Assembly (NCBI GenBank): GCA_963699255.1
Contig: OY969425.1
Location: 6,070 to 70,069, forward strand
Length of the DNA stretch: 64,000 bases
DNA from: an uncultured bacterium
GTDB lineage: Bacteria > Margulisbacteria > WOR-1 > CAVSGV01
Reading direction: 5' to 3'
Positions 2,498 to 61,654 of the stretch are shown piece after piece; position 1 is the stretch's first letter; each line of letters opens with the position of its first letter. Under the pieces are notes generated by a model. The model was not told the DNA's origin, did no database searches, and was given only the letters and a program-made list of their open reading frames with translations. The position numbers and the translations under genes were made by a program.

Positions 2498-5200
2498 ATG
2501 ATGATGAATGTTTCAAAAATGACTTTAGGGACAAGACAACCGGGTTTGAACCATCCTGTCAGTTATCGGGGGAGGATCCTTTCGCTAATTTCTCCTGAAT
2601 ATGCAATTCACCCGGATTCAGAAAAAATTGGAAAGATCATACATAATATAGCCCTCTGGCACGCAAGTATCGGAATAAGGACAAATGTTATAATCCCGTA
2701 TTCCAGTAAACTTGATAACATTAATTGGGACCAGATCACATATAACCATCCGCATAATTTCTGCTATAAGGAATATGAGGGCATTCCTGTTTTCGCGATC
2801 GGGAAAGACAAGCCTTTTTCTAATGTAATTCCGCCTAAAGAAACCGGGTATGCCGATCTGATCCATTTTGGGGACGCATTATTATATTTTATGAATCTGA
2901 ACGACTACAGCAATCATCCAACGGCCTTATTGCATTTCTTTGATTATCCCATGGGGATCGCCATGGACTACATCAGCAAACAACTTAAAGGGAACCCAAT
3001 TGCGAGTAATATGATCTTTTCACCAATGGATCCGCAAAGAAACTTTCATAAATACAACATGGGAGGAATGGGAGTCGGCATGGAAAAAGTGGATGGGCTC
3101 GAAATGGGCGCTAATGTTGCGCATAGCGTCATGTTCTGGTCGGATAAGTTTTACAAGGAGCTTCAAGGTAGTCATATGTTCTACGAATTCCTTAGGGTAA
3201 CTGGCGACAAAGCGGTTAAGTTGCCCGGTAGCTGGCAGCCTAATGTATTGGATAATATCTCGGAAAAAACATTAAGAGAGATGCAGGAAGTATATATGGG
3301 CACGTTATATAAAAAAGGGATAGATAGGTCAATACATTTTATGACTGAACCGGACACGAAAATGTTCATGGACAAGGTTTACTACTTCATTCCCGAACCC
3401 TCAGACATAGCGAAACCTTCCAGAAAAATAGTGCTCAAAGATGCTTTAAGGCATGTCGCAAGTGACCTGGACAATATAATTGTCGGTGGACTCAGAGGAG
3501 TGAAGATACTTGGCGGAGGAAGGGACAAGGATGTGTTCTACGATTACTGGGAGAATCTGGGAGGTTTAACCGCTCTTCTGGAACAGGTCATAGTGGATAA
3601 CCGGGGGAGAGCGGACGTTGATGTAAAGGGAGCAAGATACCTTCTTTTGGCAGATGCGGGAGATTTTAAAAGAGGCGGGGTAATGGCCCAGGCGCTAGGA
3701 ATTGAAGCTCTAAAAAGTTTGACGCCGGAAGGGGAGAACACACTTGGCATTAATTGTATCAAACAGGCTCCGATCTTTTTCCGTCAGCTGCCTGATCACG
3801 GGAAGGGGTGGATAGTTTTTTCCGCTTCGGACAATAAATGGCTGCCGGATGGTTCGCCAAAAACGGGGAAAAAATATTTATGGGAGTCAAAGTCCAAGAT
3901 AATCCTTACCGGGAAGCCGGCCGCCAATGTGGAGGCTGTAAAAGGCCTGGGTTGTTGGGTCGCTGATGAAGCCGGAAAGATCCAATTGTTCGCGGAGAAA
4001 GCTTCGCCGGATGTGGTTAAAAACGCCTTGGATAACCTGGGATTGGCAGAGGAAGATATAAACTTGAACCCTTTCGTTTTCGCGATCAAATACGATATTG
4101 CTGAAAAAATAGTGAACTTATACAAGGATACGCCATGCAAGAAGGACGGAAAAGCTTTTGTGACCACGTATCCCCTGGATATTTCGAGCCATTTTATTTT
4201 CCCGACAACGCTTAAAAAGGGGGAATGGCAAAGGATATACGAGATATTACAGCAGGTCAGAAAAGGCAAGGTGGCTGATGAGGTTTATGATGAAGCTACC
4301 GAGAACGGGTTAAATCTGGTCGCGATAGCGAAAGGGATGAAAAAGTTTGAAAAAGAGAGGATAGGGCAGGTATTTGATAATCTGGAGGATTGGATGATGA
4401 TATATGAGATGGCGCAGAAAATAAAACTTGATGCAAATGATATCGCGGGAGCAAGCATCGGGCCGAATTGCCAGTGGAATGATTACGGGACCCTTGAAGA
4501 AATGATCGAAAAGATGTGGATGGCGGCTTTTGATAACAAGGAGCAGGTCAGATCTGTCGCAAGAAGAAGAACAGGGTTTCCTGAGGACAACAACGATATG
4601 AGCGTTGATATGGAACAAATCAAAACGTATGTAACATTCATTGATCCAGTAACCAATGATGTCATGGATCTCGAGGACGGGGAAATTCCGGAAAAGGTGA
4701 TAATACAAGATGTTAATTTTGATCATCCGGTCCAGATCGTTGCCGATAGAGTGATATTGCATGATGTTGTACTGGGAGAGGGAGTGAAAAGGATACCGGC
4801 GAATACCATCATTTCCAGAGGGGAAATAGATGAGCTGGAAGAAGCTCCCGACCAACCCAAAAGAATATCGCATCAGCCGGCGCTAATATTCAATTGTCAT
4901 AAAAAGGGCAAGGTCATTGTTTACAGAGGCATGGCACACGCATCCCTTAGTCTTGCGTATGTTGATAATGCGGATCTTATCGCACAGGGTTTACATGCAT
5001 CAGAAACGCCGCTGGCGTTAAGCCCCATATATTTCGATCTTAAGGAGGAAATCTTGAAACAGAACAATTATCAACTGTATCCCGGCATTAATCTGCTTGA
5101 ACCGGGACTGAACATGCTGGATCAGTCGTTCATCATAGAAGATGAAAATGGCAAGCCGAAGCTTTTGGGCCTGAACTTTTTCCAGGTCAAGAGCGATTGA
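2498..5200 (+). CDS. large hypothetical protein, paralog A (900 aa)
   Basis: Long ORF. It is collinear with the next gene along its whole length, with shared motifs HNFC, HFFDYPMG, FSPMDP, ADAGDFKRGG, WESK/NAKII, FVTTYP.DIS.HFIFPTTL, YRGMAHASLSL and YPGINLLEP. No recognisable domain. Confidence 0.7.
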   Translation: MMMNVSKMTLGTRQPGLNHPVSYRGRILSLISPEYAIHPDSEKIGKIIHNIALWHASIGIRTNVIIPYSSKLDNINWDQITYNHPHNFCYKEYEGIPVFAIGKDKPFSNVIPPKETGYADLIHFGDALLYFMNLNDYSNHPTALLHFFDYPMGIAMDYISKQLKGNPIASNMIFSPMDPQRNFHKYNMGGMGVGMEKVDGLEMGANVAHSVMFWSDKFYKELQGSHMFYEFLRVTGDKAVKLPGSWQPNVLDNISEKTLREMQEVYMGTLYKKGIDRSIHFMTEPDTKMFMDKVYYFIPEPSDIAKPSRKIVLKDALRHVASDLDNIIVGGLRGVKILGGGRDKDVFYDYWENLGGLTALLEQVIVDNRGRADVDVKGARYLLLADAGDFKRGGVMAQALGIEALKSLTPEGENTLGINCIKQAPIFFRQLPDHGKGWIVFSASDNKWLPDGSPKTGKKYLWESKSKIILTGKPAANVEAVKGLGCWVADEAGKIQLFAEKASPDVVKNALDNLGLAEEDINLNPFVFAIKYDIAEKIVNLYKDTPCKKDGKAFVTTYPLDISSHFIFPTTLKKGEWQRIYEILQQVRKGKVADEVYDEATENGLNLVAIAKGMKKFEKERIGQVFDNLEDWMMIYEMAQKIKLDANDIAGASIGPNCQWNDYGTLEEMIEKMWMAAFDNKEQVRSVARRRTGFPEDNNDMSVDMEQIKTYVTFIDPVTNDVMDLEDGEIPEKVIIQDVNFDHPVQIVADRVILHDVVLGEGVKRIPANTIISRGEIDELEEAPDQPKRISHQPALIFNCHKKGKVIVYRGMAHASLSLAYVDNADLIAQGLHASETPLALSPIYFDLKEEILKQNNYQLYPGINLLEPGLNMLDQSFIIEDENGKPKLLGLNFFQVKSD

Positions 5201-5265: not shown

Positions 5266-7962
5266 ATGGACAGGCTAACAAGGACATCAGGAACAATGAG
5301 CCATCCTATCAGTTATCAGGGAAGGACCGTCTGGCTCGTTTCTCCCGAGCACATTATCCATCCGGGATGCGGGAAAATGGGGAAGATCGTACATGAGATA
5401 GCTCTGTCGAACACAAAAGCCGGAACAAATACCAATATAATAATTCCATATTCGGAGAAACTGGCTGATGTTAAATGGGACGTAAGTACGCGTAATTATA
5501 CTCATAATTTTTGCTTTAGGAAGGTTGATAATATTAGCATTTTCGCGGTCGGACGCGACCAGCCCTGGTCCGAGGTGGTGCCGGCTCAAGATAAATACTA
5601 CGAGTATGTACAATTTGCGGACGCGCTGAATTATTTTATTCATCTGCACGCTTTTACGCAAGATCCCGCCGCGATCATGCATTTCTTTGATTATCCCATG
5701 GGTTTTGCTATGAGCAATCTTAAGAGCACTCTAAGATATAATGCGAACAATTCTGATCTGATGAACAATATAATATTTTCGCCAATGGATCCGCTTAATT
5801 TTAACAAACGATATAATACAGGCGACCTTTATAACATAGACGGACTTGAATCGGGCGCTAACGCGGCGCATAAAGTGATGTTCTGGTCAGAGAAATTCTA
5901 CGATGATATCAAACGAAGCAATAGGTTCCCGGAGTTTTTAAGCGCGGCCAGCGGCAAAGAGGATATTATGCCCGGCGGCTGGCAGCCCAGAATGACGGAA
6001 ACGATCCCTCAGGTAACGATACGGGGGATGCGGGCGGGGTACATGGACACATTGTATAAAAGCGGGCTTGATCGCTCGTTCCATTTTATGGCAAGACCAG
6101 GCGTAAAAATGGACAAAGTTTTCTATTTCATTCCTGAACCATCCGATACAGGGAAACCTTCCAGGAAATCTGTGATCAGAAAGTCGTTAAGACGCGTCGA
6201 GAATGAAATGGATAGTATAGTAAAAAATGGCATAGACGGAATTAAGATGCTTGGCGGAGGAAGGGACAATGTGTTCTACGATTACTGGGGGAACCTGGGG
6301 GGATTGGTCGCTTTTCTTGAGCAAATGATGATTGAGAACACGACCAAAACGGAAGATGAAATAAAAAATGCCAGATATCTTTTCATGGCTGATGCCGGGG
6401 ATTTTAAGAGGGGCGGCGGAATTGCCCAGGCAAAAGGAGTGGAAGCTCTAAAAAGCATGACGCCGGAAGGGGATCGCACGCTCGGAATTAACTGCATTTT
6501 GCAGGCCCCCGTCTTTTTCCGGCAGCTGCCGGATGACGGAAAAGGATGGATAGTATACACGGCTTCGGACAATAAATGGATCCCCGACGGCACGCCAAGA
6601 ACGGGCAATAATTATTTGTGGGAATCAAACGCTAAAATTATCATCAGCGGGCGGCCGGCCGCAAATGTGGAAGCGGTAAGAGGACTGGGTTGTTGGATCA
6701 CCGATAAATTCGGCCAGGTCATATTTTTTGCCGAGAAAGCATCGCCGGAGGTGATCAGACACACCTTAAATAAGTTAGGCCTGAAGGAAGAAGATCTGTG
6801 CCTGAACACGTTCGTGTGGGCCATGAAATACGATCTTGCCAAAAAGATAGTGGATCTATATAAGAATAAAAAATGCAAGAAGATCATGAAGGGCAAACAA
6901 GAAGCAAAATGTTTTGTGACCACGTATCCTATGGACATTTCAACTCATTTTATCTTCCCGACAACTCTCACCCGGGCAGAATGGGAAAAAACATACGAAA
7001 TATTGCAGTATGTTAGAGCGAAAAAGGATACCTCCAAATTCAGCAATGAATTTACCGGACGCGGGCTAAGCCTGGTTGAGGTGGCGAAACAAATGAAAGG
7101 ATTTGAAAAAGAGGGGCCGGGCACTGATCAGGTCTTTAATGATCTGGATGATTGGATGACCATATATGATATGGCGAGCATTATTAACGAGGATGCAAAC
7201 GGCATAGATGGAGCGAATATCGGGAAGAATTGCCTGTGGAACGATTTCGGAGACCTTAAGAGTATGGTTAATGAAATGTATTTTGAAAATTTTTCAGACA
7301 ATGAATGGGCCAGAAAAGCCGAAAGAACGAGATCGGGATACCCTCTGGATAAGAACACTCAGAATGTTGACATGAATGAGATCAGGGACTATGTGAAATT
7401 CATAGACCCGGAATCCGGCAAGCCTATGCAGCTTGCCGAGGGGGAGATACCTGAAAAGGTGATATTAAATAATGTGAGCTTTGATCATCCTGTTGAAATT
7501 GTCGCTGACAGGGTAATATTGGATGATGTAAAGCTTGGGAAAGGGGTCACAAAAATACCGGCAAATACTATCATTGCCAAAGGAGAAATAGAGGATCTGG
7601 AAGAAGCTCCAGATCAGTCCGAAACACTTTCGAAGATGCCGGCATTGATATTCAATTGCCATAAAAAAGGCAAAGTACTTGTTTATAGGGGCATGGCACA
7701 TGCGTCTCTTAGCCTTGAATATGTCGACCAAAAAGATCTCAACGAGCAGGGTTTATCACCCTCTGACACGCCACTGACATTAACTCCCATCCTTTTCAAT
7801 TTAAAAGCACCCATTAATGAGCAAGACGACTATATACTGTACCCGGGAATTAATCTGCTTGAACCAGAATTTAGCATGTTAGAGCAGTCGTTCATCATAG
7901 AAGATGAAAATGGCAAGCCGAAGCTATTGGGCCTGACCTTTTTCCAGGTTAAGGGCGACTGA
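5266..7962 (+). CDS. large hypothetical protein, paralog B (898 aa)
   Basis: Tandem paralog of 2498..5200. A GGAGG RBS precedes the ATG. The last ~40 nt of coding DNA are almost identical to paralog A. Confidence 0.7.
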   Translation: MDRLTRTSGTMSHPISYQGRTVWLVSPEHIIHPGCGKMGKIVHEIALSNTKAGTNTNIIIPYSEKLADVKWDVSTRNYTHNFCFRKVDNISIFAVGRDQPWSEVVPAQDKYYEYVQFADALNYFIHLHAFTQDPAAIMHFFDYPMGFAMSNLKSTLRYNANNSDLMNNIIFSPMDPLNFNKRYNTGDLYNIDGLESGANAAHKVMFWSEKFYDDIKRSNRFPEFLSAASGKEDIMPGGWQPRMTETIPQVTIRGMRAGYMDTLYKSGLDRSFHFMARPGVKMDKVFYFIPEPSDTGKPSRKSVIRKSLRRVENEMDSIVKNGIDGIKMLGGGRDNVFYDYWGNLGGLVAFLEQMMIENTTKTEDEIKNARYLFMADAGDFKRGGGIAQAKGVEALKSMTPEGDRTLGINCILQAPVFFRQLPDDGKGWIVYTASDNKWIPDGTPRTGNNYLWESNAKIIISGRPAANVEAVRGLGCWITDKFGQVIFFAEKASPEVIRHTLNKLGLKEEDLCLNTFVWAMKYDLAKKIVDLYKNKKCKKIMKGKQEAKCFVTTYPMDISTHFIFPTTLTRAEWEKTYEILQYVRAKKDTSKFSNEFTGRGLSLVEVAKQMKGFEKEGPGTDQVFNDLDDWMTIYDMASIINEDANGIDGANIGKNCLWNDFGDLKSMVNEMYFENFSDNEWARKAERTRSGYPLDKNTQNVDMNEIRDYVKFIDPESGKPMQLAEGEIPEKVILNNVSFDHPVEIVADRVILDDVKLGKGVTKIPANTIIAKGEIEDLEEAPDQSETLSKMPALIFNCHKKGKVLVYRGMAHASLSLEYVDQKDLNEQGLSPSDTPLTLTPILFNLKAPINEQDDYILYPGINLLEPEFSMLEQSFIIEDENGKPKLLGLTFFQVKGD

Positions 7963-8037: not shown

Positions 8038-11000
8038 ATGGTAGAACGCACTAGGGACATAAGCCATCTGCCTGTAGCGCGGTTCAATTCGCGTTCATGC
8101 GGGATCACGTCAAAAATACCCTCAATTAAAGCCGGCCGTGATGTCGTATCGTCGACTAAAAGAATATTGATCATGTTCAAGCCGGATTGTCTGGCGTACG
8201 GAATGGTCCCGGAGACGCTCCAGCTTTTAAAGAAAGGGCTTGACCGCGAAAAGATAGATGCCCGTTTTGCAGGTCTGGTCCTCCTTAATTTAACGCCTCA
8301 GCTGACGGACAGGATATATGCGGAACATGTTGGAAAGGATTGGTACGAAGGACTATTCAAACCATTCATGACCGCAAAGCACCCGAACGAAAAAGCTGTT
8401 CGTGCCCCGATCATCGCGGCAATGCTGGAAGTAAGAAATGACGCCAGCCGGGATGTTGTCAGCGTGATAAGGAAGAACGTCATCGGCCCCACCGATGTAG
8501 AAGAGTACGAAAATAAAGATGAAATAAAGGACACATTAAGATACAAACTGATACTGGAAAAAGGATTGTTAACATGGCCGTTCCCGGAGGATCCCAAAGG
8601 CCCGAATTACAACAGGATACATTGTTCTGCAAATGAAAAAATCGCGGGAGATGAACTTTACCCGGTTTTTGGCATAAAAGGCATTTTGTCCAAACTTTAT
8701 GAACCGTCCGCGGTAAAGGATGTTCTGTCAGGCTGGAGCCAGCAGGGTTATGCCGATGTCCCCGGCGTGATCAGGATACCGATTCATGAGTATCTTGGGG
8801 CTGATCCGGTGATCTTTTCCAGAAAGATCATCAGGGCCTTCAGTGACAATGGATGCGTATATAAGGACTTTGATGAGATCAAGGCTGAACAATTGATAAG
8901 GTCATTGAATGACATGCGGGAGATGATCCAGGGCCAGGAGTTTTTTTTTAACAAGGTAACCTCTTCGATCGACCCCACAGATCCCATAAATCCTTTAAAA
9001 CCAAGAGTTGTAGCAATATTTGGCGCCCCCGGAAGCGGAAAAACCACCATTTCAGACATATTAAAGAATAAAGGCGTCGTTTCCATTCTGCCTTTGACCG
9101 TGAATGAAGAAAGAGAAAAAAGCGGAGCGACGGAATATGAGCTCAGATCAAAGACCGAAATATTGCGGATGATCCGGGAGAATGAATTCGTCGGATGGGA
9201 AATCCTTGCCGGCAATTATTATGGAATATCAAAACGGACCGCGGAAATGATCCTGAGATCTTCCGGCAAAACTTTCGCTCTGCTGGCCGGGCCAACAATT
9301 GTTTATCCATTAAGGGAAGCGCTCAAGGGGAAAGCGGACTTTTATCAGGTGATGTTCAAAGTGCCCCCGAATGACCTTGCTTCAAGGATCACAAAACGCG
9401 CGACCGTCCGGGACAGGGAAAGGGGCATCGCTTTATCCCTTGAGACTCAAAAATGGATGGAGGAAAGTTTCGGGAATTTCGACCTCATAACGGAAAACCC
9501 GAACAGCGAAAGTGAAACGGCGGCGGCTCAAAAGCTGATCGATTTTCTGGCCAAGCCCCAAAACGTAGAATTCGACCGCAAAAAAGAAGCTTCAACTCTG
9601 GCGGCTACTTATCCATATAATGCCGTGGAAATGTTCAAGGACCAGAGACAGAGTTTCAGTAATAAGGATATTGTAACCCTTGAAAAACAAGTCATGTCCC
9701 TTGTGGGGACTACAATTGAAGCTATGTACCGCGCGGTCAGGAGCTCGCTTCCCGCGGAGACGGACCTGGGAGTCGAATTCAATGAATTTTTGTCCGGCTT
9801 GATATTGCATACCGCAAAAGTACTGGTCGCCGGTATTCAGCTTAGATCGTTCCAATATGAAGATATTACCGCGAGCCCGATCAAGTTCGGCAGGATAGGA
9901 CTGTGCAGCTCAAAAGAAAGGGCGGATAAACTTTATAAAAAGCTCAAGGATATCCAGAACAGGATGCCTCTTGAAGAAGAAATGCTTTTTGATCTTGTTC
10001 ATGATATCGGGAAAATGGAGAACATCATACAACATCCCGAAAAAGGTTATGAAATAGCGAAAAGGCTGAAAATGTTCGAAGGGTGGGGGGTTGAAGGGAT
10101 AGACACCGATGTCGATCTTATTGCCATAAAATGCTCGCATCTTATCGGCTCGTATATGTTGCCGGATAATTCGCTTATTGCCGTGGCAGATGAACTTTCC
10201 CATAAGGATGTGAAGAGCGTTCTTGCCAGGAAGGACGGGAGCGTGGACATGGAACGCATGAAAAACTTCCTGGAAAAGATATGTTTTTTCCCGTCCAAGG
10301 ACGCATCCGGATACAAGGATGGATGGTTGTTAGTTCTGTTCTCTGAAGGGTATTTTGCCTTTGGAGAATGGCTTTATTCCGTATTCAGCAGGAATTCGGA
10401 TAATTACGATAACGCGATAGCTGAAATTAAAAAGAGCAGCGCCGGGTCTAATATGGACAGGATAGCAAAGTGCGTTGCCATGGAGGATGCGGATGCCGAT
10501 GTCAACGGGCGAACATTCGAATATTACAGGGACAATATCGTAATGCCGAACGTCCGGGCCTGCGTTGATGAATGGGTATTCACGCAAAAAGACTGGGATC
10601 TGGTCGTGGGGAACCTCCATCATATAAGTAAACTCCGTTATTCAACGAACCTGATATGCGATTCCCTGCAGTGGATAGGGGCAAAAGGCGAAAAGATCGA
10701 GGACCTCAATAATTACAGGAATATGTTCAAGCTTTTCGTGATCATGGCTAAATCGCTCATCGCATTCTCAAAGGATCCATCGCGGCCCGGCGATTTTGAG
10801 TTCAGGTTCACATATGACGACGGCAAAGAGATAATGGGCCCGAAGAATTGGGGGCCGGCAATGGACTTTTGTAATGACCAGCTGGATATTTCAACCGGCG
10901 ATATTGAAAAAGTCGGCAACAGCATATCAATCGTTCCCAAAGAAAAAAGCAAGCTGCCGAACGTGGAAATTACCGAAGAAATCGTGGATGGATGCAGGTT

Positions 11001-11052
11001 GATCTCCTTCAAGCTTAAAGGTTATTCAGGGCAAAATCCCGCTTCAAAATAG
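8038..11052 (+). CDS. multidomain protein with NDK-like, guanylate-kinase-like and HD-phosphohydrolase domains plus a C-terminal region of unknown function (1004 aa)
   Basis: Residues ~40-180 read ILIMFKPDC...FAGLVLLNLTPQLTDRIYAEHVGKDWYEGLFKPFMT...APIIAAMLEVR, an NDK-like fold in which I cannot find the HGSD catalytic His. Residues ~330-490 have the P-loop AIFGAPGSGKTT, then TVNEEREKSG, GNYYGISKRT and LAGPTIV, matching GMP kinase. Residues ~590-700 have H...LVHDIGK, an HD motif. The start is uncertain; ATG at 8174 (MFKPD) is an alternative. Confidence 0.7.
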   Translation: MVERTRDISHLPVARFNSRSCGITSKIPSIKAGRDVVSSTKRILIMFKPDCLAYGMVPETLQLLKKGLDREKIDARFAGLVLLNLTPQLTDRIYAEHVGKDWYEGLFKPFMTAKHPNEKAVRAPIIAAMLEVRNDASRDVVSVIRKNVIGPTDVEEYENKDEIKDTLRYKLILEKGLLTWPFPEDPKGPNYNRIHCSANEKIAGDELYPVFGIKGILSKLYEPSAVKDVLSGWSQQGYADVPGVIRIPIHEYLGADPVIFSRKIIRAFSDNGCVYKDFDEIKAEQLIRSLNDMREMIQGQEFFFNKVTSSIDPTDPINPLKPRVVAIFGAPGSGKTTISDILKNKGVVSILPLTVNEEREKSGATEYELRSKTEILRMIRENEFVGWEILAGNYYGISKRTAEMILRSSGKTFALLAGPTIVYPLREALKGKADFYQVMFKVPPNDLASRITKRATVRDRERGIALSLETQKWMEESFGNFDLITENPNSESETAAAQKLIDFLAKPQNVEFDRKKEASTLAATYPYNAVEMFKDQRQSFSNKDIVTLEKQVMSLVGTTIEAMYRAVRSSLPAETDLGVEFNEFLSGLILHTAKVLVAGIQLRSFQYEDITASPIKFGRIGLCSSKERADKLYKKLKDIQNRMPLEEEMLFDLVHDIGKMENIIQHPEKGYEIAKRLKMFEGWGVEGIDTDVDLIAIKCSHLIGSYMLPDNSLIAVADELSHKDVKSVLARKDGSVDMERMKNFLEKICFFPSKDASGYKDGWLLVLFSEGYFAFGEWLYSVFSRNSDNYDNAIAEIKKSSAGSNMDRIAKCVAMEDADADVNGRTFEYYRDNIVMPNVRACVDEWVFTQKDWDLVVGNLHHISKLRYSTNLICDSLQWIGAKGEKIEDLNNYRNMFKLFVIMAKSLIAFSKDPSRPGDFEFRFTYDDGKEIMGPKNWGPAMDFCNDQLDISTGDIEKVGNSISIVPKEKSKLPNVEITEEIVDGCRLISFKLKGYSGQNPASK

Positions 11053-11061
11053 TCCTCAAAT

Positions 11062-11090
11062 TGAAATTTCCAGGAGTTTCATACGATAAA
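11062..11090 (+). promoter_or_regulatory. recurrent promoter-like motif
   Basis: ttgaaatttccaggagtttcatacgataaat, 12 nt upstream of the 11103 start. Confidence 0.4.
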
Positions 11091-11102
11091 TAAAGGAAGA
11101 TT

Positions 11103-12536
11103 ATGAGTGAAATTCGCTTTAACCCGAGAATGCCGCGCGTAGAGAACGCTGTTTTGCAGCCGAAAAAGCTGTCAAACGGAACATCCGCGCTTTATTTCAG
11201 CAGATCGCTCCCGTATAGCGATCCCAATAACGCGAGAGAACTGATAGATAACAAGCTTTTTTATCTGTCGGCGCAGAGGTTTGATGTCTTCGCGTGTTTC
11301 TCGGGGCACATGTCCAGAAAGCCCGCCATTTTACAGGAAAGCGTGAACCGATTTGCATCCCGTTTTAGAGAAAGAAACAAGGTGGTCATAAAGGAACTTG
11401 GAGCGGGATCCGGGGACAGCATGGCAATCGTGCTTGGCGATGTAAAAAAGAGATATTCTCCGCTGTACAAGAAATTGTCCGCGTATGCTTCCGACGGGTA
11501 TGAACCGGTTTGTGAAGCAATGAAAAGGTCAAAGCAGCTTCGACAATTCATTTCAGAAAATAAATTGGATATTTTACGGGAGGACCTGTTGGAAGATCTC
11601 CACGGCCAGAAATTAGCCGATTATGTTCGAGTGAGTTATTCTCTCTCGGACCTTCCGGAAGATATCGTGAAGAAAGAAAACGGAAGGTTTTACGCGGCTG
11701 ATGTAAGAGGATATATTACCGGCAAAGAGGGCTTTAGAACGCAAGACAATGAAAATATCCCTGTCAAATATATTGCCGGTCTGTTAAGCGAAGGAAAGCT
11801 GCAGGAGATCATAGACCTGGGACTGGACATACGCGACATAAAACCCAGAGTGGGATTTGATGTCAAGTATGCGCCTATGGATTTCGCCGTCATGACCGAC
11901 GGCGGTCTGGTCAGGAATATACTGGAGCAGATCACGGCTGGTATGGGAGATACCAAGCTCAGGACGGGATTGAACGCGGCAAAAGCGGTCGAAAAAATAT
12001 TGAACAATCATCTCAGGCCGGATGTTGGATCATATATCGAGGCGTTCGATGTGTGGACATCAGAGATCATGCCGCATGCGCACATCCCTTATACGGCCCT
12101 TGATCTTACTTCGGCATACAGCGTGAACCTGCCTTTCATCAAGGCGTATTTTGAAGCCAAAAAGACGCCGATAGATGTGGGATTCGAGGACTGGAAGAGA
12201 TACATAAATCTGACAGAGCCGTATATCGATCTGTCGCATTTTTCAAGATGGCTAAAGGGCAGCGGAGCGGAGATCGATTCGTTCTTCGGGCGGCATATTC
12301 CGGCAAGAAGCGTGAGCATGGTCGTTGACTTCCTTAAAAGGACGCAACATGTTGCTGATATGGTTTTATATTCCGAAAAGCAGGCTCATCCATTTATCCT
12401 GGTCCTTAATAACGCGGGATTCACTGAGAAGGAAAAAGAAATGTTATTCATCAGCGGAAAATTCCCGGAGACCGTTAATACAAAAACAAAAGGTTATTTC
12501 GGGCTTTATCAGGTCGTTACCATCAAAAACATATGA
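11103..12536 (+). CDS. hypothetical protein, possible Rossmann-fold SAM-methyltransferase-like (477 aa)
   Basis: AAGGAAG RBS. VIKELGAGSGDSMAIVLG resembles MTase motif I, with an acidic residue after the next strand (AYASDGYEP). Assignment is weak. Confidence 0.5.
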   Translation: MSEIRFNPRMPRVENAVLQPKKLSNGTSALYFSRSLPYSDPNNARELIDNKLFYLSAQRFDVFACFSGHMSRKPAILQESVNRFASRFRERNKVVIKELGAGSGDSMAIVLGDVKKRYSPLYKKLSAYASDGYEPVCEAMKRSKQLRQFISENKLDILREDLLEDLHGQKLADYVRVSYSLSDLPEDIVKKENGRFYAADVRGYITGKEGFRTQDNENIPVKYIAGLLSEGKLQEIIDLGLDIRDIKPRVGFDVKYAPMDFAVMTDGGLVRNILEQITAGMGDTKLRTGLNAAKAVEKILNNHLRPDVGSYIEAFDVWTSEIMPHAHIPYTALDLTSAYSVNLPFIKAYFEAKKTPIDVGFEDWKRYINLTEPYIDLSHFSRWLKGSGAEIDSFFGRHIPARSVSMVVDFLKRTQHVADMVLYSEKQAHPFILVLNNAGFTEKEKEMLFISGKFPETVNTKTKGYFGLYQVVTIKNI

Positions 12537-12537
12537 T

Positions 12538-12572
12538 CTGAAATTTCCCTCCATTTTTAACGATATATATAC
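12538..12572 (+). promoter_or_regulatory. recurrent promoter-like motif
   Basis: ctgaaatttccctccatttttaacgatatatatacac, followed by the RBS cagggagaaaatgcctatg. Confidence 0.4.
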
Positions 12573-12583
12573 ACAGGGAGAAA

Positions 12584-13327
12584 ATGCCTATGGCCGATAT
12601 TAGAGGGATTTCATTCGGGACAGCGTTAAAAGGGACGGCCCATTATCTAAAAATGAGGTCAATGGAAAAGCTGCATCCATTCAATGTCCCTGCCGGCGGG
12701 AAATTCTCAAAGCCCGGTCTCATAATGGACGAAGATGCTTACGTAATGGCCATGCATGAGCCGATAGCCGTATATTACGCGCAAAAGCTCGCGGTAAAGC
12801 ATCTGGTCGAGATCTGCTCAGGAGCCGGTTCAATGACAGTTCAATTCGGGCGGTTCAGCGACCGCGTATCCACAATAGAGATGGACCTTTACCGTTCTCA
12901 AAGGTGTGTCCCGCACAATACAAAAGTTTACGGCGTAAATGAAAAGGTGACCTCAATATGGGGGAACGCCATGCATGAAGATCTTTTAAAATCTTTAGCT
13001 CCGGCTGGTGCGGTTTGGGCCGATCCGGACTGGCTTTATGACGTGCCGCCGGCGAATTTCCCGATCGCCATGACGCAGCCGCCGATCCCGGAGGTATTTG
13101 AAAAGGTCAACCGCTTATTGACCCCTAACATGGCGTTCAGGATGGTGAGGACAACAAGGATCAATGACGTGCTGAAGCTTGGCCCATGCAGGATAGAATA
13201 TGTTTATTGGGACAATAAGCTTAAATTCCTGGTAAGCCTCTTTGGTAATCTTGCTTCTGAACAGGGTATCTTTGAAATTAACTTTTCCTCAGATAAAGGA
13301 TTCCTCTCAAGCCAGCGCATTAAGTGA
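12584..13327 (+). CDS. putative SAM-dependent methyltransferase (247 aa)
   Basis: Motif I-like VEICSGAGSMTVQFG. A downstream WADPDW / DVPPANF segment is reminiscent of the (D/N)PP(Y/W) motif of amino-MTases. Own promoter motif and RBS. Confidence 0.5.
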   Translation: MPMADIRGISFGTALKGTAHYLKMRSMEKLHPFNVPAGGKFSKPGLIMDEDAYVMAMHEPIAVYYAQKLAVKHLVEICSGAGSMTVQFGRFSDRVSTIEMDLYRSQRCVPHNTKVYGVNEKVTSIWGNAMHEDLLKSLAPAGAVWADPDWLYDVPPANFPIAMTQPPIPEVFEKVNRLLTPNMAFRMVRTTRINDVLKLGPCRIEYVYWDNKLKFLVSLFGNLASEQGIFEINFSSDKGFLSSQRIK

Positions 13328-13359
13328 AATTCCGCCCCATTTTTGACGATATATATATA
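13324..13359 (+). promoter_or_regulatory. recurrent promoter-like motif
   Basis: gtgaaattccgccccatttttgacgatatatatata, followed by the RBS caggggagaacaaaatg. Confidence 0.4.
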
Positions 13360-13373
13360 CAGGGGAGAACAAA

Positions 13374-13583
13374 ATGAAGACCGGAAAAGCAATAAATTTC
13401 TATTTCAATGAACCCCGCATTTACAGGGCGAGACCGGATGTCGCGAGGCTGAAAACACTGCATAAAGAAGGGCTTAACATACGGTATACAACAGCTGAGG
13501 ACAGGGACATGAAGATACCCGACAAATTTTTTCCCTGCACCGCGTATCGCGGGAAACCTCATTACCCAGGGATATTCATATAA
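13374..13583 (+). CDS. small hypothetical protein (69 aa)
   Basis: Strong RBS (AGGGGAG) and the promoter motif lie directly upstream. The ORF ends 4 nt before the PurA-like gene. Confidence 0.4.
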   Translation: MKTGKAINFYFNEPRIYRARPDVARLKTLHKEGLNIRYTTAEDRDMKIPDKFFPCTAYRGKPHYPGIFI

Positions 13584-13587
13584 AGCG

Positions 13588-15162
13588 TTGGATTACGCGG
13601 TCAGCGTCATTAAGAACCAATTTGACAATAAAACACTGAAGGCCGGAGACAGCATTGACCTGATGAAATACCTTAAATTGCGCGGCAATTCTATGGTCCT
13701 TTGCGGAGCGCAATGGGGCGATGAAGGAAAGGGAAGAATGGCTTACCTCATGGCTTCCTTATTGGGAGCCAAAGCCGTGGTGAGATTCAACGGCGGGCCG
13801 AACGCGGGGAAAGTGGTGGAGGCTGAAAATGGAAGGGTCTTTGAATTGTGCATGCTGCCTGCCGGCGCTCTCAACCCGGACGTGGAAATATACATGGCTC
13901 AGGGAACGTACATCAACCTCAAGTATCTTCTAAAAGAGATTGACGATCTAGAGGCAAACAAAATATCCACCAGGAGGAGAGTGTTCATTGATGACAATTG
14001 CAGTTTGGTCCTTCCGTACTACGAAGAATTAAGCCGGGCAAAAAATATGGAGCGTTCAAAGGCCATATCTTTTAATGCAGGAATGGGAGAAGGAAGCACC
14101 GGCATGGGAATGGGCGGGGCGGTGGAAAGTAATGATATGCGCCGGGGCATTAAAGTCCATGATCTGTTCGGCGATCCCAAGCAATTACTCTCCAAGATAA
14201 CTAAAGATTTGATTTTGCAAGAATATAAGATCAGGGGATTGCTATTGATAAATAATGATAGCTGGCGTTTTCCTGAAAATTACGCAAAGAACCTTTGTGA
14301 TGACCTGTTGAAAATGGCGGGAGAGATCAAGCATATGAGGGCGAATGTAGGCCGAAAGATAGAAAGAACGATTCTGGCCGGCGGGAACATTGTTTTTGAA
14401 GGCGTCCAGGCGGCGCTTCTGGATAATGCCTGGGGCACATATCCAATTAATACAACATCCACCAAAACAACACCAAATAGCATTTATGATGGTTTGAACC
14501 TTGATTCAAAATATATGCTGACAAAAGTGGGTATCGTCAAAAGTTATACTGCCGTAAGAGGGAAGACCCCGCTTCCTACCGAATTAACCGGGGCAGAAGG
14601 TGATAAATTAAGTGAAGCGGGAAATGAATATGAGGTCAGTTACAAGATAGATCCAGAAGGCACCTTAATAACGGTTTATAATCCCGACGGGAAAACGATA
14701 GCTTATGATAAAAGCAAGCGTATCGCTGTGGGGTGGCAGGATGCCCTGGTTCTTGCAGAGTGCGCAAAGACAGGATTCACGCACTTCGCGCTCACAAAAC
14801 TGGATGCTCTGGACGGCTTCGATGAAATAAAGATCGCGACAGCGTACAAATACGAAGGCGATCAGGAATTAAACCCTAGTATTTATGAGGTCGAAGAACA
14901 CGACGAGGCAACTTTCATCCGATCATATGTCAAAGACCCGAAAGTACTTAAACACTGCACGCCGATCTATGAGACACTCCCCGGGTGGGCGTCCGAACTT
15001 AAAAAAAGAGGGCTTGCATCAATTTCGGAGATAAAAAAGTTTGAAGATCTTCCTGCCGCGGCGCAGAACTATGTGAAACGAATAGAAGAGATTCTGGGGC
15101 GTCCGATCGTATTTGTCTCTGTCGGCCCCAAAAAGGACCAATATATTGAAAGAAAATACTAG
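13588..15162 (+). CDS. adenylosuccinate-synthetase (PurA)-family ligase, divergent, with a remodelled active site and a ~100-aa insertion
   Basis: The P-loop CGAQWGDEGKG, VVRFNGGPNAGKV (GHT replaced by GKV), LLDNAWGTYPINTTST, TKLDALDG and SVGPKKD all align to PurA. The Asp-binding GATTGRRRR loop is replaced by VSYKIDPEGTLITVYNPDGKTIAYDKSKRIAVGW. The annotated start is TTG; in-frame ATGs at 13663 and 13693 are alternatives. Confidence 0.8.
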   Translation: MDYAVSVIKNQFDNKTLKAGDSIDLMKYLKLRGNSMVLCGAQWGDEGKGRMAYLMASLLGAKAVVRFNGGPNAGKVVEAENGRVFELCMLPAGALNPDVEIYMAQGTYINLKYLLKEIDDLEANKISTRRRVFIDDNCSLVLPYYEELSRAKNMERSKAISFNAGMGEGSTGMGMGGAVESNDMRRGIKVHDLFGDPKQLLSKITKDLILQEYKIRGLLLINNDSWRFPENYAKNLCDDLLKMAGEIKHMRANVGRKIERTILAGGNIVFEGVQAALLDNAWGTYPINTTSTKTTPNSIYDGLNLDSKYMLTKVGIVKSYTAVRGKTPLPTELTGAEGDKLSEAGNEYEVSYKIDPEGTLITVYNPDGKTIAYDKSKRIAVGWQDALVLAECAKTGFTHFALTKLDALDGFDEIKIATAYKYEGDQELNPSIYEVEEHDEATFIRSYVKDPKVLKHCTPIYETLPGWASELKKRGLASISEIKKFEDLPAAAQNYVKRIEEILGRPIVFVSVGPKKDQYIERKY

Positions 15163-15262: not shown

Positions 15263-15287
15263 ATTGAAAGAAAAGGGAAACCAATAT

Positions 15288-18200
15288 ATGCCATTTTTTG
15301 AACGAATTAAATTCAACAGGACAGATATAAGAAAGCAAAACGTTGAGCCCCTTAAAATAGGGAAGCAGGCTCCAAAGCTGCATTTGCCGGATCAAGAAAT
15401 AAGGGTTCGAATTATCCCTGAGATCCATGGCATAACGGGGAACATGGAAAACATGAATAATATCGGACGGACCATAAAGATTTCCCAGGATGACGCCACA
15501 CTGTTCAAGACCCATCCCTGGCTGGAGCAAATACCCGAGGACGCGATCTTAAGCGGGGAAACCGCGAAGATATTCAAGAATAAGCTTTCAAAGGTCATTG
15601 ACGCGATGGACGGCCTGATGCCAAGTATCGGTGTTACGGGCACTAAATTAAAGAGTATCAGGGTCGCGACAGCGGAATTAAAGAAAATATTTAAGAGATC
15701 GGAAGGAAAGACGGTCCGGGACACATGCAAGGCATTGATCGGCGTATACACCTATTTGGGTGTAAGAGCGGTCGGGACCGTGGCTGTGGTGGGGATCCCG
15801 CAAATATCGACAGGTGAAAAGGTGATAGACGGAATAGCCGCGGCGGCGCTTTTTCTGGGAGAAAGTGTCGTAAGGCTCAGGACAACGATCGGATACCAGC
15901 ACTCGATCCTGGAAGGATTGGGCAGGGGACCAAAATATTACGATATAAGCGCGGATGAGAAAGTGCATGCTTCGGGGATCGAATTCAACCCAAATGACCT
16001 GGAAAACCCTTTCAAAATATTTACTGACGCGCCGGAATGCATGTCTGTCCTATATATCAATGAAGAGCCCGGCGTGCTGGAGAGAAGCATTTTCGGGCAC
16101 TTCTTTATTGAGAACAAGAGGCAAATGATGGTCGTGAACAGCGGAGGTTATAAGTTCGAGGAGTTCCAGCATATCGTGGATACCGTAAAAAATTGGATAG
16201 AAGCAAGAAAGAGCGAGGTACTGTCGGCAAAAGCTAGGTCCATAAGCTCCCGGGACGCGGAACTGTCGGCCATGGAACTTTTAAAGCTTCTTGTGAACAT
16301 AAGGACGGAGTGCAAGAGGCTTTCCGATGCCTACTATGAAACGGCCGTTCAGGATTTTGGCAACATGATAGCGGGCAGCGGCGCGGCGCTAGATAAGGAG
16401 CTTGCTCAGCAGATATTGCTGCATACCCGCAAATGGGACGAGAAGATATCCGCTCTTTATGACCATATAGAAAATTATGAGGGCGGCAATGTAAACGCGG
16501 ACCAGCTGAGACGCCATATAAGTTCTCACTATGACTATCTTGAGCAAAAATTCACTTTTGACATAGTGATCAATTTCCGCAATTTCAAGACCTTTGATGT
16601 TGGAACGTATAAAGCCATGTGCGGCGCGATAGAAACAAGGCTTGCAGGTCAAAATATCGACATGAACGCGCCCGTAGAAAGCGCCTCTTTTAACGCGATA
16701 GTAGACAGGATAATCGAGGAGAGCGAAGACAGGGACAGGCCGGTAAGCTACCTGTTGTCAACGATCCAAATGAACAACGGGAACGTGCGCTATGATCAAA
16801 CCTCGGCTTCTTATAAATATAATTGCATCATCGGCGGAAAGACGAACAAAGCGGTGCTGGATGAGCTTATTATGGAGAATCTTTCAAGAATGGCGTTTGA
16901 AGGCGCCTACAAAGCCGGCGCCCGGGCCGAGGAATATGACCATCTTGGCAGGAAATACGTGAAGGCCGTGAACAGCTACGGTACAAGGTTCCTTGTGACC
17001 GTGGATGAATGGCTTGGCGGCATGTCGGATGTGATACTTGGGCCTGAATTGAGGAGAGCTTCAATTGATCTTGGGAACAATGTGGCCGGACAGCTTCAAC
17101 TGGATGCCGCAAGGGCAATAGATAAAGAGACAGCACAAAGAGCCATAGAAGCGGTGGCATCAAGGACATTGAACAACGGCGGCAACACGACGATCCGCGA
17201 CAGGCAAAAGATAAGGATAATGGAGAGGATCGCAAAAGTGTTCATGGAGGATGGCAGGACGACCGGCGATTTCCTGAAAGAAATAGCGGCTGTCGCGCTT
17301 TATGATGTGGCGGCTTCTCCGACTTATGATCCGACATATGAGACCGCGATCGAATGGGCGGCGTATCCCGAAAAGGCGTATATCCTGAGCTATGACAAGG
17401 ATTATGTCCCGCAGTCCATAGATCCGAACAGCGGCGAATATAATGATATGGCAAGATTGAGCGTGCCGATGCATGAAAAATGGATCTATGAAGACAACAG
17501 GACAAATATAGCTTTGATCCAGCATCCCCAGTACCAGAAGCATTTTAAAAAAGAAGGCCCCTTAAAAGACGGCGTCAGAATGACTACCGGCAACGGGAAG
17601 TACCTGGAGCCGGTGGCAAATTCTTCGGGATCGGACCAGCAGGCATGGTACGGCGAGTTTGCCCTGCCAAAGCCGCTTGAAAGGACGCTTAGCAGGTATA
17701 TCAACAGGAGAACAGGCGTGCAGTTCCTGGAAAAGGTTGCGAACAAACTTTACAAGGACAAGACCGTTAGAAAGAGCCTTGTCGCGAATATTACAAGGGA
17801 TATGCGGGAGAATGTGGCTTACAGGATGGAGAAAGGTATTGACCAGAAGCTGGATTACCTGACCGGGCGGGAGATCATTGAAAGGGTAAAATATTATTCA
17901 AGGGATATCATGATCGCCACCGGGATTGGGCCGGGAAGGGGAAAATTCAACTCGTTCTTCAGCTGCGGTACCAATGAGCTTGAATATGCGGTGGGCATGA
18001 TGCTTGGTTTTAACAGCCCATATACATATATGGTGGACGGTATAACGATGCTCGGGCAGACGACCGTAAGATATAACCCGGACATGGGAAAGATGGAGAT
18101 ACATAATTATGAGCCCAGATTTTCAAATGATCTGACATGGATAAGCGAAAGCAATGATCAAAATCACAGGCAAATGCATGAATTGAACGAGTCCGATATG

Positions 18201-18314
18201 AGGGAAATAAAAGAGGAGTACGAAGTTAACGGTAGGACCGTGGCGTTCTTGAATAACAGGGCATATGTGAAATACAACGGTGATGTTGAGAAGGTGATCT
18301 GGTGGTATCAGTAA
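15288..18314 (+). CDS. large hypothetical protein (~1008 aa)
   Basis: Long ORF. ATG at 15288 has AAGGGAAA 10 nt upstream; the ORF track's start at 15264 is TTG. No recognisable domain. Confidence 0.65.
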   Translation: MPFFERIKFNRTDIRKQNVEPLKIGKQAPKLHLPDQEIRVRIIPEIHGITGNMENMNNIGRTIKISQDDATLFKTHPWLEQIPEDAILSGETAKIFKNKLSKVIDAMDGLMPSIGVTGTKLKSIRVATAELKKIFKRSEGKTVRDTCKALIGVYTYLGVRAVGTVAVVGIPQISTGEKVIDGIAAAALFLGESVVRLRTTIGYQHSILEGLGRGPKYYDISADEKVHASGIEFNPNDLENPFKIFTDAPECMSVLYINEEPGVLERSIFGHFFIENKRQMMVVNSGGYKFEEFQHIVDTVKNWIEARKSEVLSAKARSISSRDAELSAMELLKLLVNIRTECKRLSDAYYETAVQDFGNMIAGSGAALDKELAQQILLHTRKWDEKISALYDHIENYEGGNVNADQLRRHISSHYDYLEQKFTFDIVINFRNFKTFDVGTYKAMCGAIETRLAGQNIDMNAPVESASFNAIVDRIIEESEDRDRPVSYLLSTIQMNNGNVRYDQTSASYKYNCIIGGKTNKAVLDELIMENLSRMAFEGAYKAGARAEEYDHLGRKYVKAVNSYGTRFLVTVDEWLGGMSDVILGPELRRASIDLGNNVAGQLQLDAARAIDKETAQRAIEAVASRTLNNGGNTTIRDRQKIRIMERIAKVFMEDGRTTGDFLKEIAAVALYDVAASPTYDPTYETAIEWAAYPEKAYILSYDKDYVPQSIDPNSGEYNDMARLSVPMHEKWIYEDNRTNIALIQHPQYQKHFKKEGPLKDGVRMTTGNGKYLEPVANSSGSDQQAWYGEFALPKPLERTLSRYINRRTGVQFLEKVANKLYKDKTVRKSLVANITRDMRENVAYRMEKGIDQKLDYLTGREIIERVKYYSRDIMIATGIGPGRGKFNSFFSCGTNELEYAVGMMLGFNSPYTYMVDGITMLGQTTVRYNPDMGKMEIHNYEPRFSNDLTWISESNDQNHRQMHELNESDMREIKEEYEVNGRTVAFLNNRAYVKYNGDVEKVIWWYQ

Positions 18315-28417: not shown

Positions 28418-28430
28418 GGGAGACGAAAAA

Positions 28431-30518: not shown

Positions 30519-30561
30519 GCCGCGCTTTAAGGATTTTCCCGTCCAGAAAAATCATTAAAAA

Positions 30562-30600
30562 CTGAAATTCTTCATAAGATCCGACGATAATATAGTATAG
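30562..30600 (+). promoter_or_regulatory. recurrent promoter-like motif
   Basis: ctgaaattcttcataagatccgacgataatatagtata. Confidence 0.4.
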
Positions 30601-30652
30601 GGAAAAAGCGTCTTTCGGGCTTGAGCGTAGCATATAAGGAGATAAACAGTAT

Positions 30653-32458: not shown

Positions 32459-32497
32459 TGTTAGAAAAAGTAAGGGGTGTAAAAGGGGGAATAAGAT

Positions 32498-43685: not shown

Positions 43686-43710
43686 TTTTATAAACGGGAG
43701 GAAGATTTTT

Positions 43711-60343: not shown

Positions 60344-60350
60344 TGGACAG

Positions 60351-60383
60351 GTGATTATCTATGCTAATCACTCTTCTTCTTCA
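60351..60383. terminator. hairpin between convergent genes
   Basis: GTGATTAtctatgcTAATCAC is a 7-bp stem followed by tcttcttcttc. It sits 8 nt after the 58802..60343 stop and upstream of the - strand MTase 3' end. Confidence 0.45.
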
Positions 60384-61630: not shown

Positions 61631-61654
61631 GATGAGAAGAGGAGAATTGATCCG

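Follow-up and report, generated by a model that had tools for sequence, protein, structure and literature searches.

A remodelled PurA-family ligase-like protein in a conserved gene cassette of an uncultured Margulisbacteria lineage, with a possible role in making a non-canonical purine nucleotide

To our knowledge, very few paralogues of the adenylosuccinate synthetase PurA have been recruited to new chemistry, PurZ being the best-known of them. PurA homologues such as ToyG, encoded in the toyocamycin and other 7-deazapurine nucleoside antibiotic clusters, keep the aspartate chemistry and are accompanied by an adenylosuccinate-lyase homologue and by 7-deazaguanine genes. PurZ, which serves the 2-aminoadenine (Z-base) pathway, is a short, archaeal-type enzyme of phage genomes that keeps a His residue (H52) and the aspartate loop and carries Ser at the position of Asp13 (PMC8342488, PMC12884076). 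The aspartate loop is represented by T273-T276 in S-2L PurZ (PMC8342488), the Ser is found in all 147 phage PurZ sequences (PMC12884076), and PurZ is active with it (PMC8342488, PMC12884076), whereas Asp13 is essential and 99% conserved in PurA (PMC12884076). Here we describe a long, cellular PurA-family protein without the aspartate loop, together with the three genes that precede it, from a stretch of 64,000 nucleotides of an uncultured WOR-1 bacterium (Margulisbacteria; assembly GCA_963699255.1, contig OY969425.1, positions 6,070 to 70,069), which is referred to in full as the window. With the ToyG-type clusters this locus shares a PurA paralogue in what may be a specialised purine-analogue pathway, but their partner genes are not present here.

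The cassette lies on the + strand and comprises a gene for a fusion of NDK-like, guanylate-kinase-like and probable HD domains (8038-11052, 1004 amino acids, aa), a MidA-like methyltransferase gene (11103-12536, 477 aa), a TGS1-like methyltransferase gene (12584-13327, 247 aa) and a gene for a PurA-family, GTP-dependent ligase-like protein (13374-15162, ~595 aa after repair of the reading frame). An initial annotation of this DNA had counted five adjacent genes; its open reading frame (ORF) positions are exact, but the genes number four, as the 69-aa ORF that it listed separately (13374-13583, +) is the 5' end of the PurA-like gene, whose main part is a 524-aa ORF with a TTG start (13588-15162, +). 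A +1 frameshift in a run of six T (13527-13532) separates the two, and deleting one T gives a continuous PurA-like protein of 595 aa. The orthologue P0001 (608 aa) reads straight through, its first ~85 residues matching the 69-aa ORF before entering the frame of the 524-aa ORF, and it is this continuity, together with the restoration of the frame by removal of one T, that assigns the 69-aa ORF to the PurA-like gene. Other ORF pairs in the window are broken as well, one of them at a run of eight A near position 18310, inside a gene that is intact (1775 aa) in the related locus L001. Such broken frames are probably indel errors of long-read assembly rather than pseudogenes. Gaps of 46-75 bp separate the cassette genes, and since the ORFs are long and have orthologues in other assemblies at 43-66% identity, they are not chance reading frames.

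That the last gene encodes a PurA homologue was borne out by a score of 311 bits with PF00709, over the same fold and with ~35% identity to PurA in the core. The protein nevertheless scores below the NCBIfam equivalog cut-offs (290.8 bits against 402 for NF002223 and 261.5 against 395.55 for TIGR00184). For residue comparisons the protein was aligned to E. coli PurA, the numbering of which was cross-checked against HMMER alignments to the PDB chains 1ade, 3hid and 6bs7. The GTP-binding elements GDEGKG (13717-13734, +) and TKLD (14794-14805, +) are kept, as originally proposed, and SVGP (15118-15129, +) is present too; in E. coli numbering the retained residues are G12-D13-E14-G15-K16-G17, N38, T129, R143, Q224, T239, K331/D333 of TKLD and S414-x-G-P. 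Changed are H41 to Lys, T42 to Val, R131 to Met, P135 to Gly and TRVG to AVRG. The roles of D13, H41, R131, R303 and R305 we take to be those established for PurA by the structural and mutational work of Honzatko and Fromm, according to which H41 is reportedly the catalytic acid. The predicted absence of the catalytic His was confirmed, GGHNAGHT of PurA being replaced by GGPNAGKV (13792-13815, +).

The aspartate-binding side is rebuilt most extensively. In the window the loop GATTGRRRR (298-306) is exchanged for EVSYKIDPEGTLITVYNPDGKTIAYDKSKRIAV (14632-14730, +), which brings a 27-aa insert that ends in a basic remnant. The aspartate-binding residues R131, T300/T301, R303 and R305 are not retained, R131 being Met and the loop reading EVSY...YDKSKRIAV. 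The loop had been described as lost; it is indeed replaced, but lost is an overstatement, as a basic KSKR end remains (KRKK in P0001). Likewise, the single insertion of ~100 aa proposed at first resolves into an N-terminal extension of ~100 aa, five internal inserts of ~7-27 aa and one of 2 aa.

The closest relative, P0001, is 58% identical and was the sole close match among 5.8 billion protein clusters, all other matches being canonical PurA at 31-36% identity. Neighbouring genes and further relatives helped to extend the family to six members, namely the window protein, P0001 from L001, and the proteins of L086, L088, L089 and L090. These fall into two types. Type A (window, P0001, L089) carries GDEGKG in the P-loop and GG[P/L]N[A/S]GK[V/I] in the H41 region, while type B (L086, L088, L090) has GQEGK[A/G], with Asp13 changed to Gln, and GGDNC[D/C]Y, with His41 changed to Tyr. 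All six share the N-terminal extension and an insert of 20-28 aa in place of the aspartate loop, and all six keep K16, N38, R143, Q224, T239, TKLD and SVG[P/Q]; none has H41. Within each type the replacement of the loop is itself conserved, a pattern that speaks for a new pocket under selection and against decay. Identity to canonical PurA is 33-37% over the aligned core, compared with 68% among the sampled canonical sequences. Neighbour-joining analysis together with 33 canonical PurAs placed the six in one group in 89 of 100 bootstraps and recovered each type in all 100, although identity between the types (~32%) is no higher than that to canonical PurA (~36%) and long-branch attraction is possible; the extension, the loop replacement and the gene context are the stronger arguments that this is one family. 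From these comparisons the view of a neofunctionalised PurA paralogue with a seemingly intact GTP site and a rebuilt pocket for the third substrate holds up.

The fusion protein was said to join NDK, guanylate-kinase and HD modules, and the first two are supported. In the window protein the NDK-like domain (aa 42-211, 8161-8670, +) matches PF00334 with 24.9 bits against a cut-off of 27 (E = 2.1e-5), and the guanylate-kinase-like P-loop domain (aa 322-493, 9001-9516, +) matches PF00625 with 24.6 bits against 25.2 (E = 2.4e-5). Both were found in all four orthologues that have the region (best E = 5.8e-10 and 3e-9, respectively), and the kinase domain also matches TIGR03263 (E = 2.3e-9) and guanylate kinases of the PDB (E = 3e-8). 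Neither reaches its equivalog cut-off, the kinase domain scoring 37 bits against 160 for guanylate kinase and the NDK-like domain 19.6 against 155 for NCBIfam ndk. The motifs FKPD, YAEH, IGPT, LRY and NRIHCS are conserved in the three orthologues aligned, as are the catalytic His and its K, Y, R, T and N partners, so the phosphohistidine site of the NDK-like domain looks intact.

The acceptor site of the kinase domain is a different matter. The P-loop GAPGSGKTT and the motif VNEEREK are invariant in the orthologues aligned. The residues that we take to contact guanosine monophosphate (GMP) in yeast guanylate kinase, from the 1GKY structure, are S34, R38, R41, E44, Y50, E69, Y78, S80 and D100; in a HMMER alignment to 1gky only Y50 and Y78 are kept and the other seven are replaced, VNEEREK standing where the GMP contacts were. 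This fits an acceptor other than GMP, and we surmise that the domain has a guanylate-kinase fold that probably does not bind GMP in the usual way.

The third module, a probable HDIG-type HD domain (~aa 588-758, 9799-10311, +), is weak statistically. PF01966 gives 14.8 bits against a cut-off of 22 in the window protein (E = 0.037), matches two of four orthologues (best E = 0.01), and has no counterpart in PDB profile searches, in which the C-terminal part of the fusion returned guanylate kinase only. The assignment draws mainly on the His/Asp pattern H591...H655-D656 (VHDIGK)...H666...H701...D755, invariant in the three orthologues aligned. An RSH-type (p)ppGpp hydrolase was considered and rejected, as the motif is of the HDIG type and not HDxxED. 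The C-terminal ~245 aa of the fusion are conserved as well. Database entries for the fusion comprise only the window's own protein, P0122 (48% identity) and P0123 (65%), with L089 supplying a fourth, and a profile of the part from the kinase domain to the C-terminus found no relative in GTDB species genomes. At the junction of the NDK-like and kinase-like domains the window has a run of nine T (8941-8949, +). L001 and L002, from two assemblies, share identical DNA over 9.9 kb; both have eight T at this place (L001 ~5548-5555), which splits the gene into overlapping ORFs of 304 aa (the NDK part) and 702 aa. The poly-T difference may reflect noise in the assembly, a true fission of the gene or a switch prone to slippage. 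Three lineages have the NDK part fused and one has it as a separate ORF, from which it appears to be functionally linked to the rest of the fusion.

Both methyltransferase-like genes of the initial annotation could be related to known families. The 247-aa protein matches PF09445 with 36.9 bits against a cut-off of 22 and human TGS1 (PDB 3egi, 3gdh) with E = 2e-10 over aa 44-224, i.e., the whole methyltransferase domain; by sequence it is a full-length TGS1-like methyltransferase of the cap guanine-N2 type. It keeps the S-adenosylmethionine (SAM) motifs and the Trp of the TGS1 motif SPPW, which aligns to DPDW (13022-13033). In contrast to TGS1, it is bacterial and small, lacks an RNA-cap context and gives way to a MidA-like paralogue in sister lineages. 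For its part, the 477-aa protein is probably a distant enzyme of the MidA/NDUFAF7 type. It matches Methyltransf_28 (PF02636) weakly (15 bits against 23.3, E = 0.017), has no match in PDB sequence or profile searches, and belongs to a tiny family with only four relatives in an exhaustive HMMER search of 1.84 billion representatives. Comparison by hhalign of this family with P0136, which itself matches PF02636 at E = 1.4e-14, gave 97.4% probability (E = 1.2e-11), and the profile homology covers the Rossmann core and the D-x-LP segment, although identity is ~25%. Its SAM motifs are also intact, motif I reading IKELGAGSGDS (11388-11420, +).

The TGS1-like gene is found only in the window and in L001/L002; L086, L088 and L089 have a second MidA-like paralogue at that position, which suggests that the cassette requires two methyltransferase activities, the second of which either fold can supply. 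The closest characterised relatives of both enzymes methylate guanidine-type nitrogens. TGS1 reportedly acts on free m7GDP and m7GTP, as work from the Shuman laboratory is said to have found.

The gene neighbourhood is conserved in relatives; its absence from all of them had been named beforehand as grounds for giving up the idea of a nucleotide cassette. Loci of relatives were covered to ±10 kb, and some contigs of the family are short or unlinked. The window reads leuCD, two proteins of 900 and 898 aa, the fusion, the MidA-like, TGS1-like and PurA-like proteins, a giant GT2-like protein and a GH26 protein. L001 has leuCD, a 908-aa protein, the NDK part and remainder of the fusion (304 and 702 aa), a 471-aa protein, the TGS1-like and PurA-like (608 aa) proteins, the 1775-aa giant and a GH26 protein of 724 aa. 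L089 encodes proteins of 900 and 898 aa, a fusion of 993 aa, proteins of 272, 316, 477 and 477 aa, a PurA-like protein of 594 aa, proteins of 1130 and 833 aa and a GH26-like one. L004 and L088, from the same sample, give 904, 898, a fusion of 995 aa and a repeat protein on one side and 264, 214, 477, 478 and the PurA-like protein on the other; that they represent one genome is an assumption, as the contigs are not linked directly. In L086 a nucleotidyltransferase-like protein, recognised by eye, is followed by 468, 471 and 236 aa, a PurA-like protein of 581 aa, and 1108 and 864 aa. L085 shows two 900-aa paralogues and then only the first 37 codons of the next gene.

The order fusion, MidA-like, PurA-like thus recurs in L001, L002 and L089, and in L004 with L088 only if these are one genome, while the pair of MidA-like and PurA-like genes is also seen in L086. 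Wherever a contig extends far enough, the PurA-like members share one type of cluster. HEAT/PBS-like repeat proteins and small coiled-coil proteins (N-terminus MGLFS...) lie between the fusion and the MidA-like genes of related clusters (L001 19440-20546, L004 8617-9306, L088 3-1400, L089 8166-9946), and no counterpart was identified at that position in the window. In L086 the protein at 24-665, at the contig end upstream of two MidA-like genes, looks by eye like a minimal nucleotidyltransferase with a GS...DxD-like motif.

In the window the cassette forms part of one co-directional block from 2498 to ~33.9 kb with intergenic gaps of 0-145 bp, an arrangement on a single strand that is compatible with co-transcription. 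The G+C content is 44-48% over the island of 2-30 kb, against 50-54% downstream (30-56 kb). Despite this odd composition the cluster is old in its lineage, the same leuCD flank being found in a relative whose PurA-like protein is only 58% identical.

A point absent from the initial annotation is that the cassette is always embedded among glycan-type genes. Upstream of it lie the two ~900-aa paralogues (2498-5200 and 5266-7962, +), 58% identical to each other and with a putative GT5-like N-terminal domain. Sub-threshold matches to PF08323 occur in two of five family members (best E = 8e-4) and to TIGR02095 (glgA) in one of five (E = 0.005); the two window proteins show no significant Pfam domain and the family no match in PDB searches. 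One or two copies stand directly upstream of the fusion gene in the four loci that show both. The middle region of these proteins had the appearance of a fucokinase/GDP-fucose-pyrophosphorylase-like segment with a left-handed beta-helix, an impression gained by eye that no tool supported and that is not claimed here.

Downstream, a giant membrane protein with motifs of GT2 processive synthases (15264-20706, +) is spread over three overlapping ORFs of 1016, 489 and 316 aa in the window, with one junction (18302/18314) in the run of eight A and the other (19756/19771) not at a homopolymer. Its single-ORF counterpart of 1775 aa in L001 matches PF13632 (E = 0.0012) and PF13641 (E = 0.012) at aa 1111-1247, below the cut-offs. 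In the window ITED (18695-18706, +) and QHHRW (18812-18826, +) are 39 aa apart, and the window, L086 and L089 proteins all have [I/T][I/T]ED and, 38-39 aa further on (38 aa in L086 and L089), QxxRW, immediately ahead of a region rich in transmembrane segments. A profile of L086 and L089 had BcsA as the top PDB match in the motif region (E = 0.35, not significant). The giants of L086/L089 and of window/L001 have no BLAST similarity to each other and their motifs were not aligned by MAFFT, so their putative equivalence is one of position and motif pair only. The next gene encodes a 1061-aa protein with a GH26 domain (20707-23892, +; PF02156, E = 1.9e-12), and GH26 is conserved downstream of the synthase-like gene, as the 724-aa protein of L001 has PF02156 and a partial ORF of L089 matches both.

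A membrane protein with TED and QxxRW at BcsA-like spacing beside a glycoside hydrolase recalls exopolysaccharide operons of the BcsA/BcsZ type. Here, however, neither PilZ nor known accessory subunits were detected, the hydrolase is GH26 and not GH8, the synthase is far larger, the nucleotide-tailoring cassette is directly upstream, and the GT2 evidence is below threshold. The setting thus looks like a locus of the glycan-synthesis type, for which the GT5 and GT2 assignments are suggestive.

Taken together, our best guess is that the four genes are a conserved module in which a non-canonical purine nucleotide is built and phosphorylated, within a larger operon of the glycan-synthesis type in a deep uncultured lineage. 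The domain identities, the residue patterns, the conservation of the cluster and its absence from viral, plasmid and defence collections are established. We tentatively suggest that a modified purine nucleotide made by the cassette is destined for the adjoining glycan machinery, since its constant embedding among glycan-type genes points to a product that serves them. The PurA-like protein would bind GTP and a 6-oxopurine nucleoside monophosphate (NMP), as PurA does, phosphorylate the 6-oxo group and couple the activated position to a nucleophile presumably other than aspartate, given that R131 and the 298-306 loop, which form the aspartate pocket, have been remodelled. The MidA-like and TGS1-like enzymes, the latter replaced in other lineages by a second MidA-like enzyme, would add methyl groups to nitrogens of the base, either exocyclic or guanidine-type. 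The kinase domain, whose NMP site no longer seems to fit GMP, would then form the diphosphate and the NDK domain the triphosphate, with the HD domain hydrolysing nucleotide for control of the pool or for recycling. The product may serve the ~900-aa GT5-like-domain proteins, the giant GT2-like synthase and the GH26 protein as a nucleotide carrier or effector. Read most simply, and still provisionally, the parts with apparently intact cofactor sites would turn a 6-oxopurine NMP into an N-substituted, N-methylated purine di- or triphosphate. In a further-reaching form, which we regard as quite unlikely, inosine monophosphate or another 6-oxopurine NMP would be converted into such a di- or triphosphate and loaded with a sugar by the ~900-aa proteins, giving a private, orthogonal nucleotide-sugar donor, or a dedicated allosteric nucleotide, for the giant GT2-like synthase only. 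The enzymology of the initial annotation was largely right, and its proposal of another N-substituent, possibly methylated, remains in general form the best reading of the chemistry; the Z-base and viperin framings in which it was cast are not supported.

Several points weigh against a nucleotide-making cassette. We infer every catalytic step, substrate and product. The copy of the PurA-like gene in the window has a frameshift, the HD assignment is a weak one, only two lineages have the TGS1-like gene, and those enzymes of the MidA family that have been characterised methylate arginine in proteins and do not act on nucleotides. Neither the GT2 nor the GT5 signals reach curated cut-offs, and AlphaFold2 models of the fusion (predicted local distance difference test score, pLDDT, of 38 from a three-sequence alignment) and of the 898-aa protein (pLDDT 35 from four sequences) were unusable. 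Type A has Lys and type B has Tyr in place of H41, the PurA catalytic acid, and Asp13, essential in PurA (PMC12884076), is Gln in type B; the canonical phosphoryl-transfer chemistry may thus be lost, at least in type B.

These substitutions lead to the main rival, which we consider possible though unlikely: the PurA-like protein would be a pseudoenzyme, a GTP- or alarmone-binding regulator of the neighbouring synthase, while the NDK, kinase and HD domains recycle guanine nucleotides locally, e.g., for a GDP-sugar. Other polysaccharide synthase systems, with their degenerate subunits for nucleotide binding, would offer a parallel. PurA, guanylate kinase and HD hydrolases are classical (p)ppGpp-interacting families, and GH26 is mainly a mannanase family, mannan synthesis using GDP-mannose. 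The exchange of H41 for Lys or Tyr in all members and of D13 for Gln in type B, next to invariant GTP-binding elements, agrees with a regulatory protein, as does the position of the PurA-like gene directly upstream of the giant GT2-motif membrane protein in the window, L001, L086 and L089. Such a module, however, leaves the two methyltransferases without a role and would need GMP recycling from a kinase domain that lacks the GMP contacts. It also does not account for the continued conservation of the NMP-site residues N38, R143, Q224 and T239, and replacement of Asp13 alone is no proof of inactivity, as PurZ is active with Ser (PMC8342488, PMC12884076).

The methyltransferases themselves could instead point to the modification of a macromolecule, the TGS1-like enzyme acting on a cap-like RNA structure or the MidA-like enzyme on arginine residues of a partner such as the synthase. 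Their homology to TGS1 and MidA/NDUFAF7 speaks for this, since the natural substrates of TGS1 are capped RNAs and the characterised MidA/NDUFAF7 enzymes methylate protein arginine. Domain scans nevertheless found no RNA-binding, guanylyltransferase or capping-type domain in the cluster, no conserved RNA element was found in the window, and the PurA, NMP-kinase and NDK folds all act on mononucleotides, which makes this explanation improbable.

A viperin-like antiviral strategy, in which a nucleotide antimetabolite is raised to the triphosphate, had been offered as an alternative in the initial annotation and now appears very unlikely. A ligase combined with kinases is compatible with such logic in principle, and the family is rare and patchy. 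PADLOC matches were, however, weak and confined to the P-loop region of the fusion (DolB, E = 8e-5; PDC-S06, E = 0.003), with nothing for the other eight proteins, and neither viperin nor a radical-SAM partner was found. The cluster adjoins leuCD wherever its left flank is visible (window, L001, L002) and travels with glycan-type genes, not with defence islands, and the integrase at 55702-56562 is 40 kb off, outside the low-GC block. By any test run, the cassette is neither mobile nor defensive.

The likeness to the phage Z-base pathway, to which the locus had been closely compared, is one of parts: a PurA paralogue for a non-canonical purine nucleotide, an HD-type hydrolase as in DatZ, and NMP and NDP kinase steps, together with a match of the PurA-like protein to PHROG 1211 (E = 3.5e-59), which groups PurA-type proteins generally. 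A cellular Z-base pathway or another DNA-base hypermodification pathway is highly improbable all the same. The PurZ model NF038379 scores 75.2 bits against a cut-off of 300, the position of Asp13 is Asp in type A or Gln in type B and never the Ser of PurZ (PMC12884076), the aspartate loop that PurZ conserves (PMC8342488) is replaced in all members, and TKLD, the GTP-specificity element, is kept. Window domain scans found no DatZ, MazZ, DpoZ or polymerase genes near the cassette; searches of viral contigs and plasmids gave no relatives and those of phage records only canonical purA at ~30% identity, and the context is that of a bacterial chromosome with leuCD and thiC among its genes. That the genes are merely diverged versions of the housekeeping purA, gmk and ndk in a deep lineage is, on the sequence of the window and the ±10-kb loci, hardly credible despite the strong PF00709 score, as the protein falls below every NCBIfam purA equivalog cut-off, has H41, R131 and the aspartate loop replaced, is 33-37% identical to canonical PurA as against 68% within the latter, has only one close relative among 5.8 billion clusters and stands beside a kinase domain without GMP contacts, in a window whose thiC and leuC are not unusually divergent in domain scores.

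Compared with PurA, then, the cassette protein combines the P-loop (GDEGKG in type A), N38, R143, Q224, T239, TKLD and SVGP with Lys or Tyr for H41, Gln for Asp13 in type B, the loss of R131, the 20-28-aa insert for the aspartate loop, the N-terminal extension of ~100 aa and extra inserts, sub-equivalog scores and a gene that is always beside MidA-like genes.

As for the remainder of the window, leuC and leuD (438-2293, -) form the left flank of the cluster. No tRNA, Rfam family or riboswitch was found in the window, the leader region at 2200-2600 included, and promoter and terminator scans of the window were at chance level. Between the GH26 gene and the fn3 giant, six + strand ORFs (24038-33878; sizes including 1459, 695, 601, 283 and 207 aa) gave no Pfam match. 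Surface proteins rich in SLH, TIG and fn3 domains occupy 35-49 kb: a 2904-aa protein with 16 matched fn3 stretches and purple-acid-phosphatase-N-like domains (34971-43685), a TIG-domain protein (43666-46110) and an SLH-domain protein (46595-49183) make up a cell-surface block directly downstream of the island. Further same-strand ORF pairs overlap at 49691-50680/50527-51834, 33255-33349 and 53038-53116, two PQQ/BamB-like beta-propeller halves among them; these pairs may be more frameshift artefacts, which fits an indel-prone long-read assembly. thiC, an AIR-synthase-like gene, an M20 peptidase gene, a NUDIX gene and a xerC-type recombinase gene follow at 51.8-56.6 kb; the best ThiC matches in GTDB species genomes reach ~60% identity and are spread over mixed phyla. 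The recombinase, a tyrosine recombinase (55702-56562), precedes a stretch of 40-41% G+C (58000-62000) that carries an ORC/CDC6-like protein (58802-60343) and a small class-I methyltransferase on the - strand, and this part may be an integrated element unrelated to the cassette.

The cluster is rare and occurs in a few uncultured bacteria; it corresponds to no described system, and searches of the literature turned up no account of such a set of genes. The PurA-like family would be a cellular branch of PurA that has kept the GTP and NMP sites and given up the use of aspartate and of the catalytic His. If the product is a new methylated purine nucleotide, the cassette would provide a new enzyme reaction, tools for nucleotide tailoring and possibly a new class of sugar donor or effector, and a private donor or allosteric nucleotide, if true, would be a previously unknown nucleotide currency for the building of cell-surface glycans. 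If the PurA-like protein is instead a GTP-sensing pseudoenzyme, it would represent a new type of regulator for polysaccharide synthases. Either way, the cluster provides a delimited set of genes open to testing, in a lineage whose biology has hardly been characterised.

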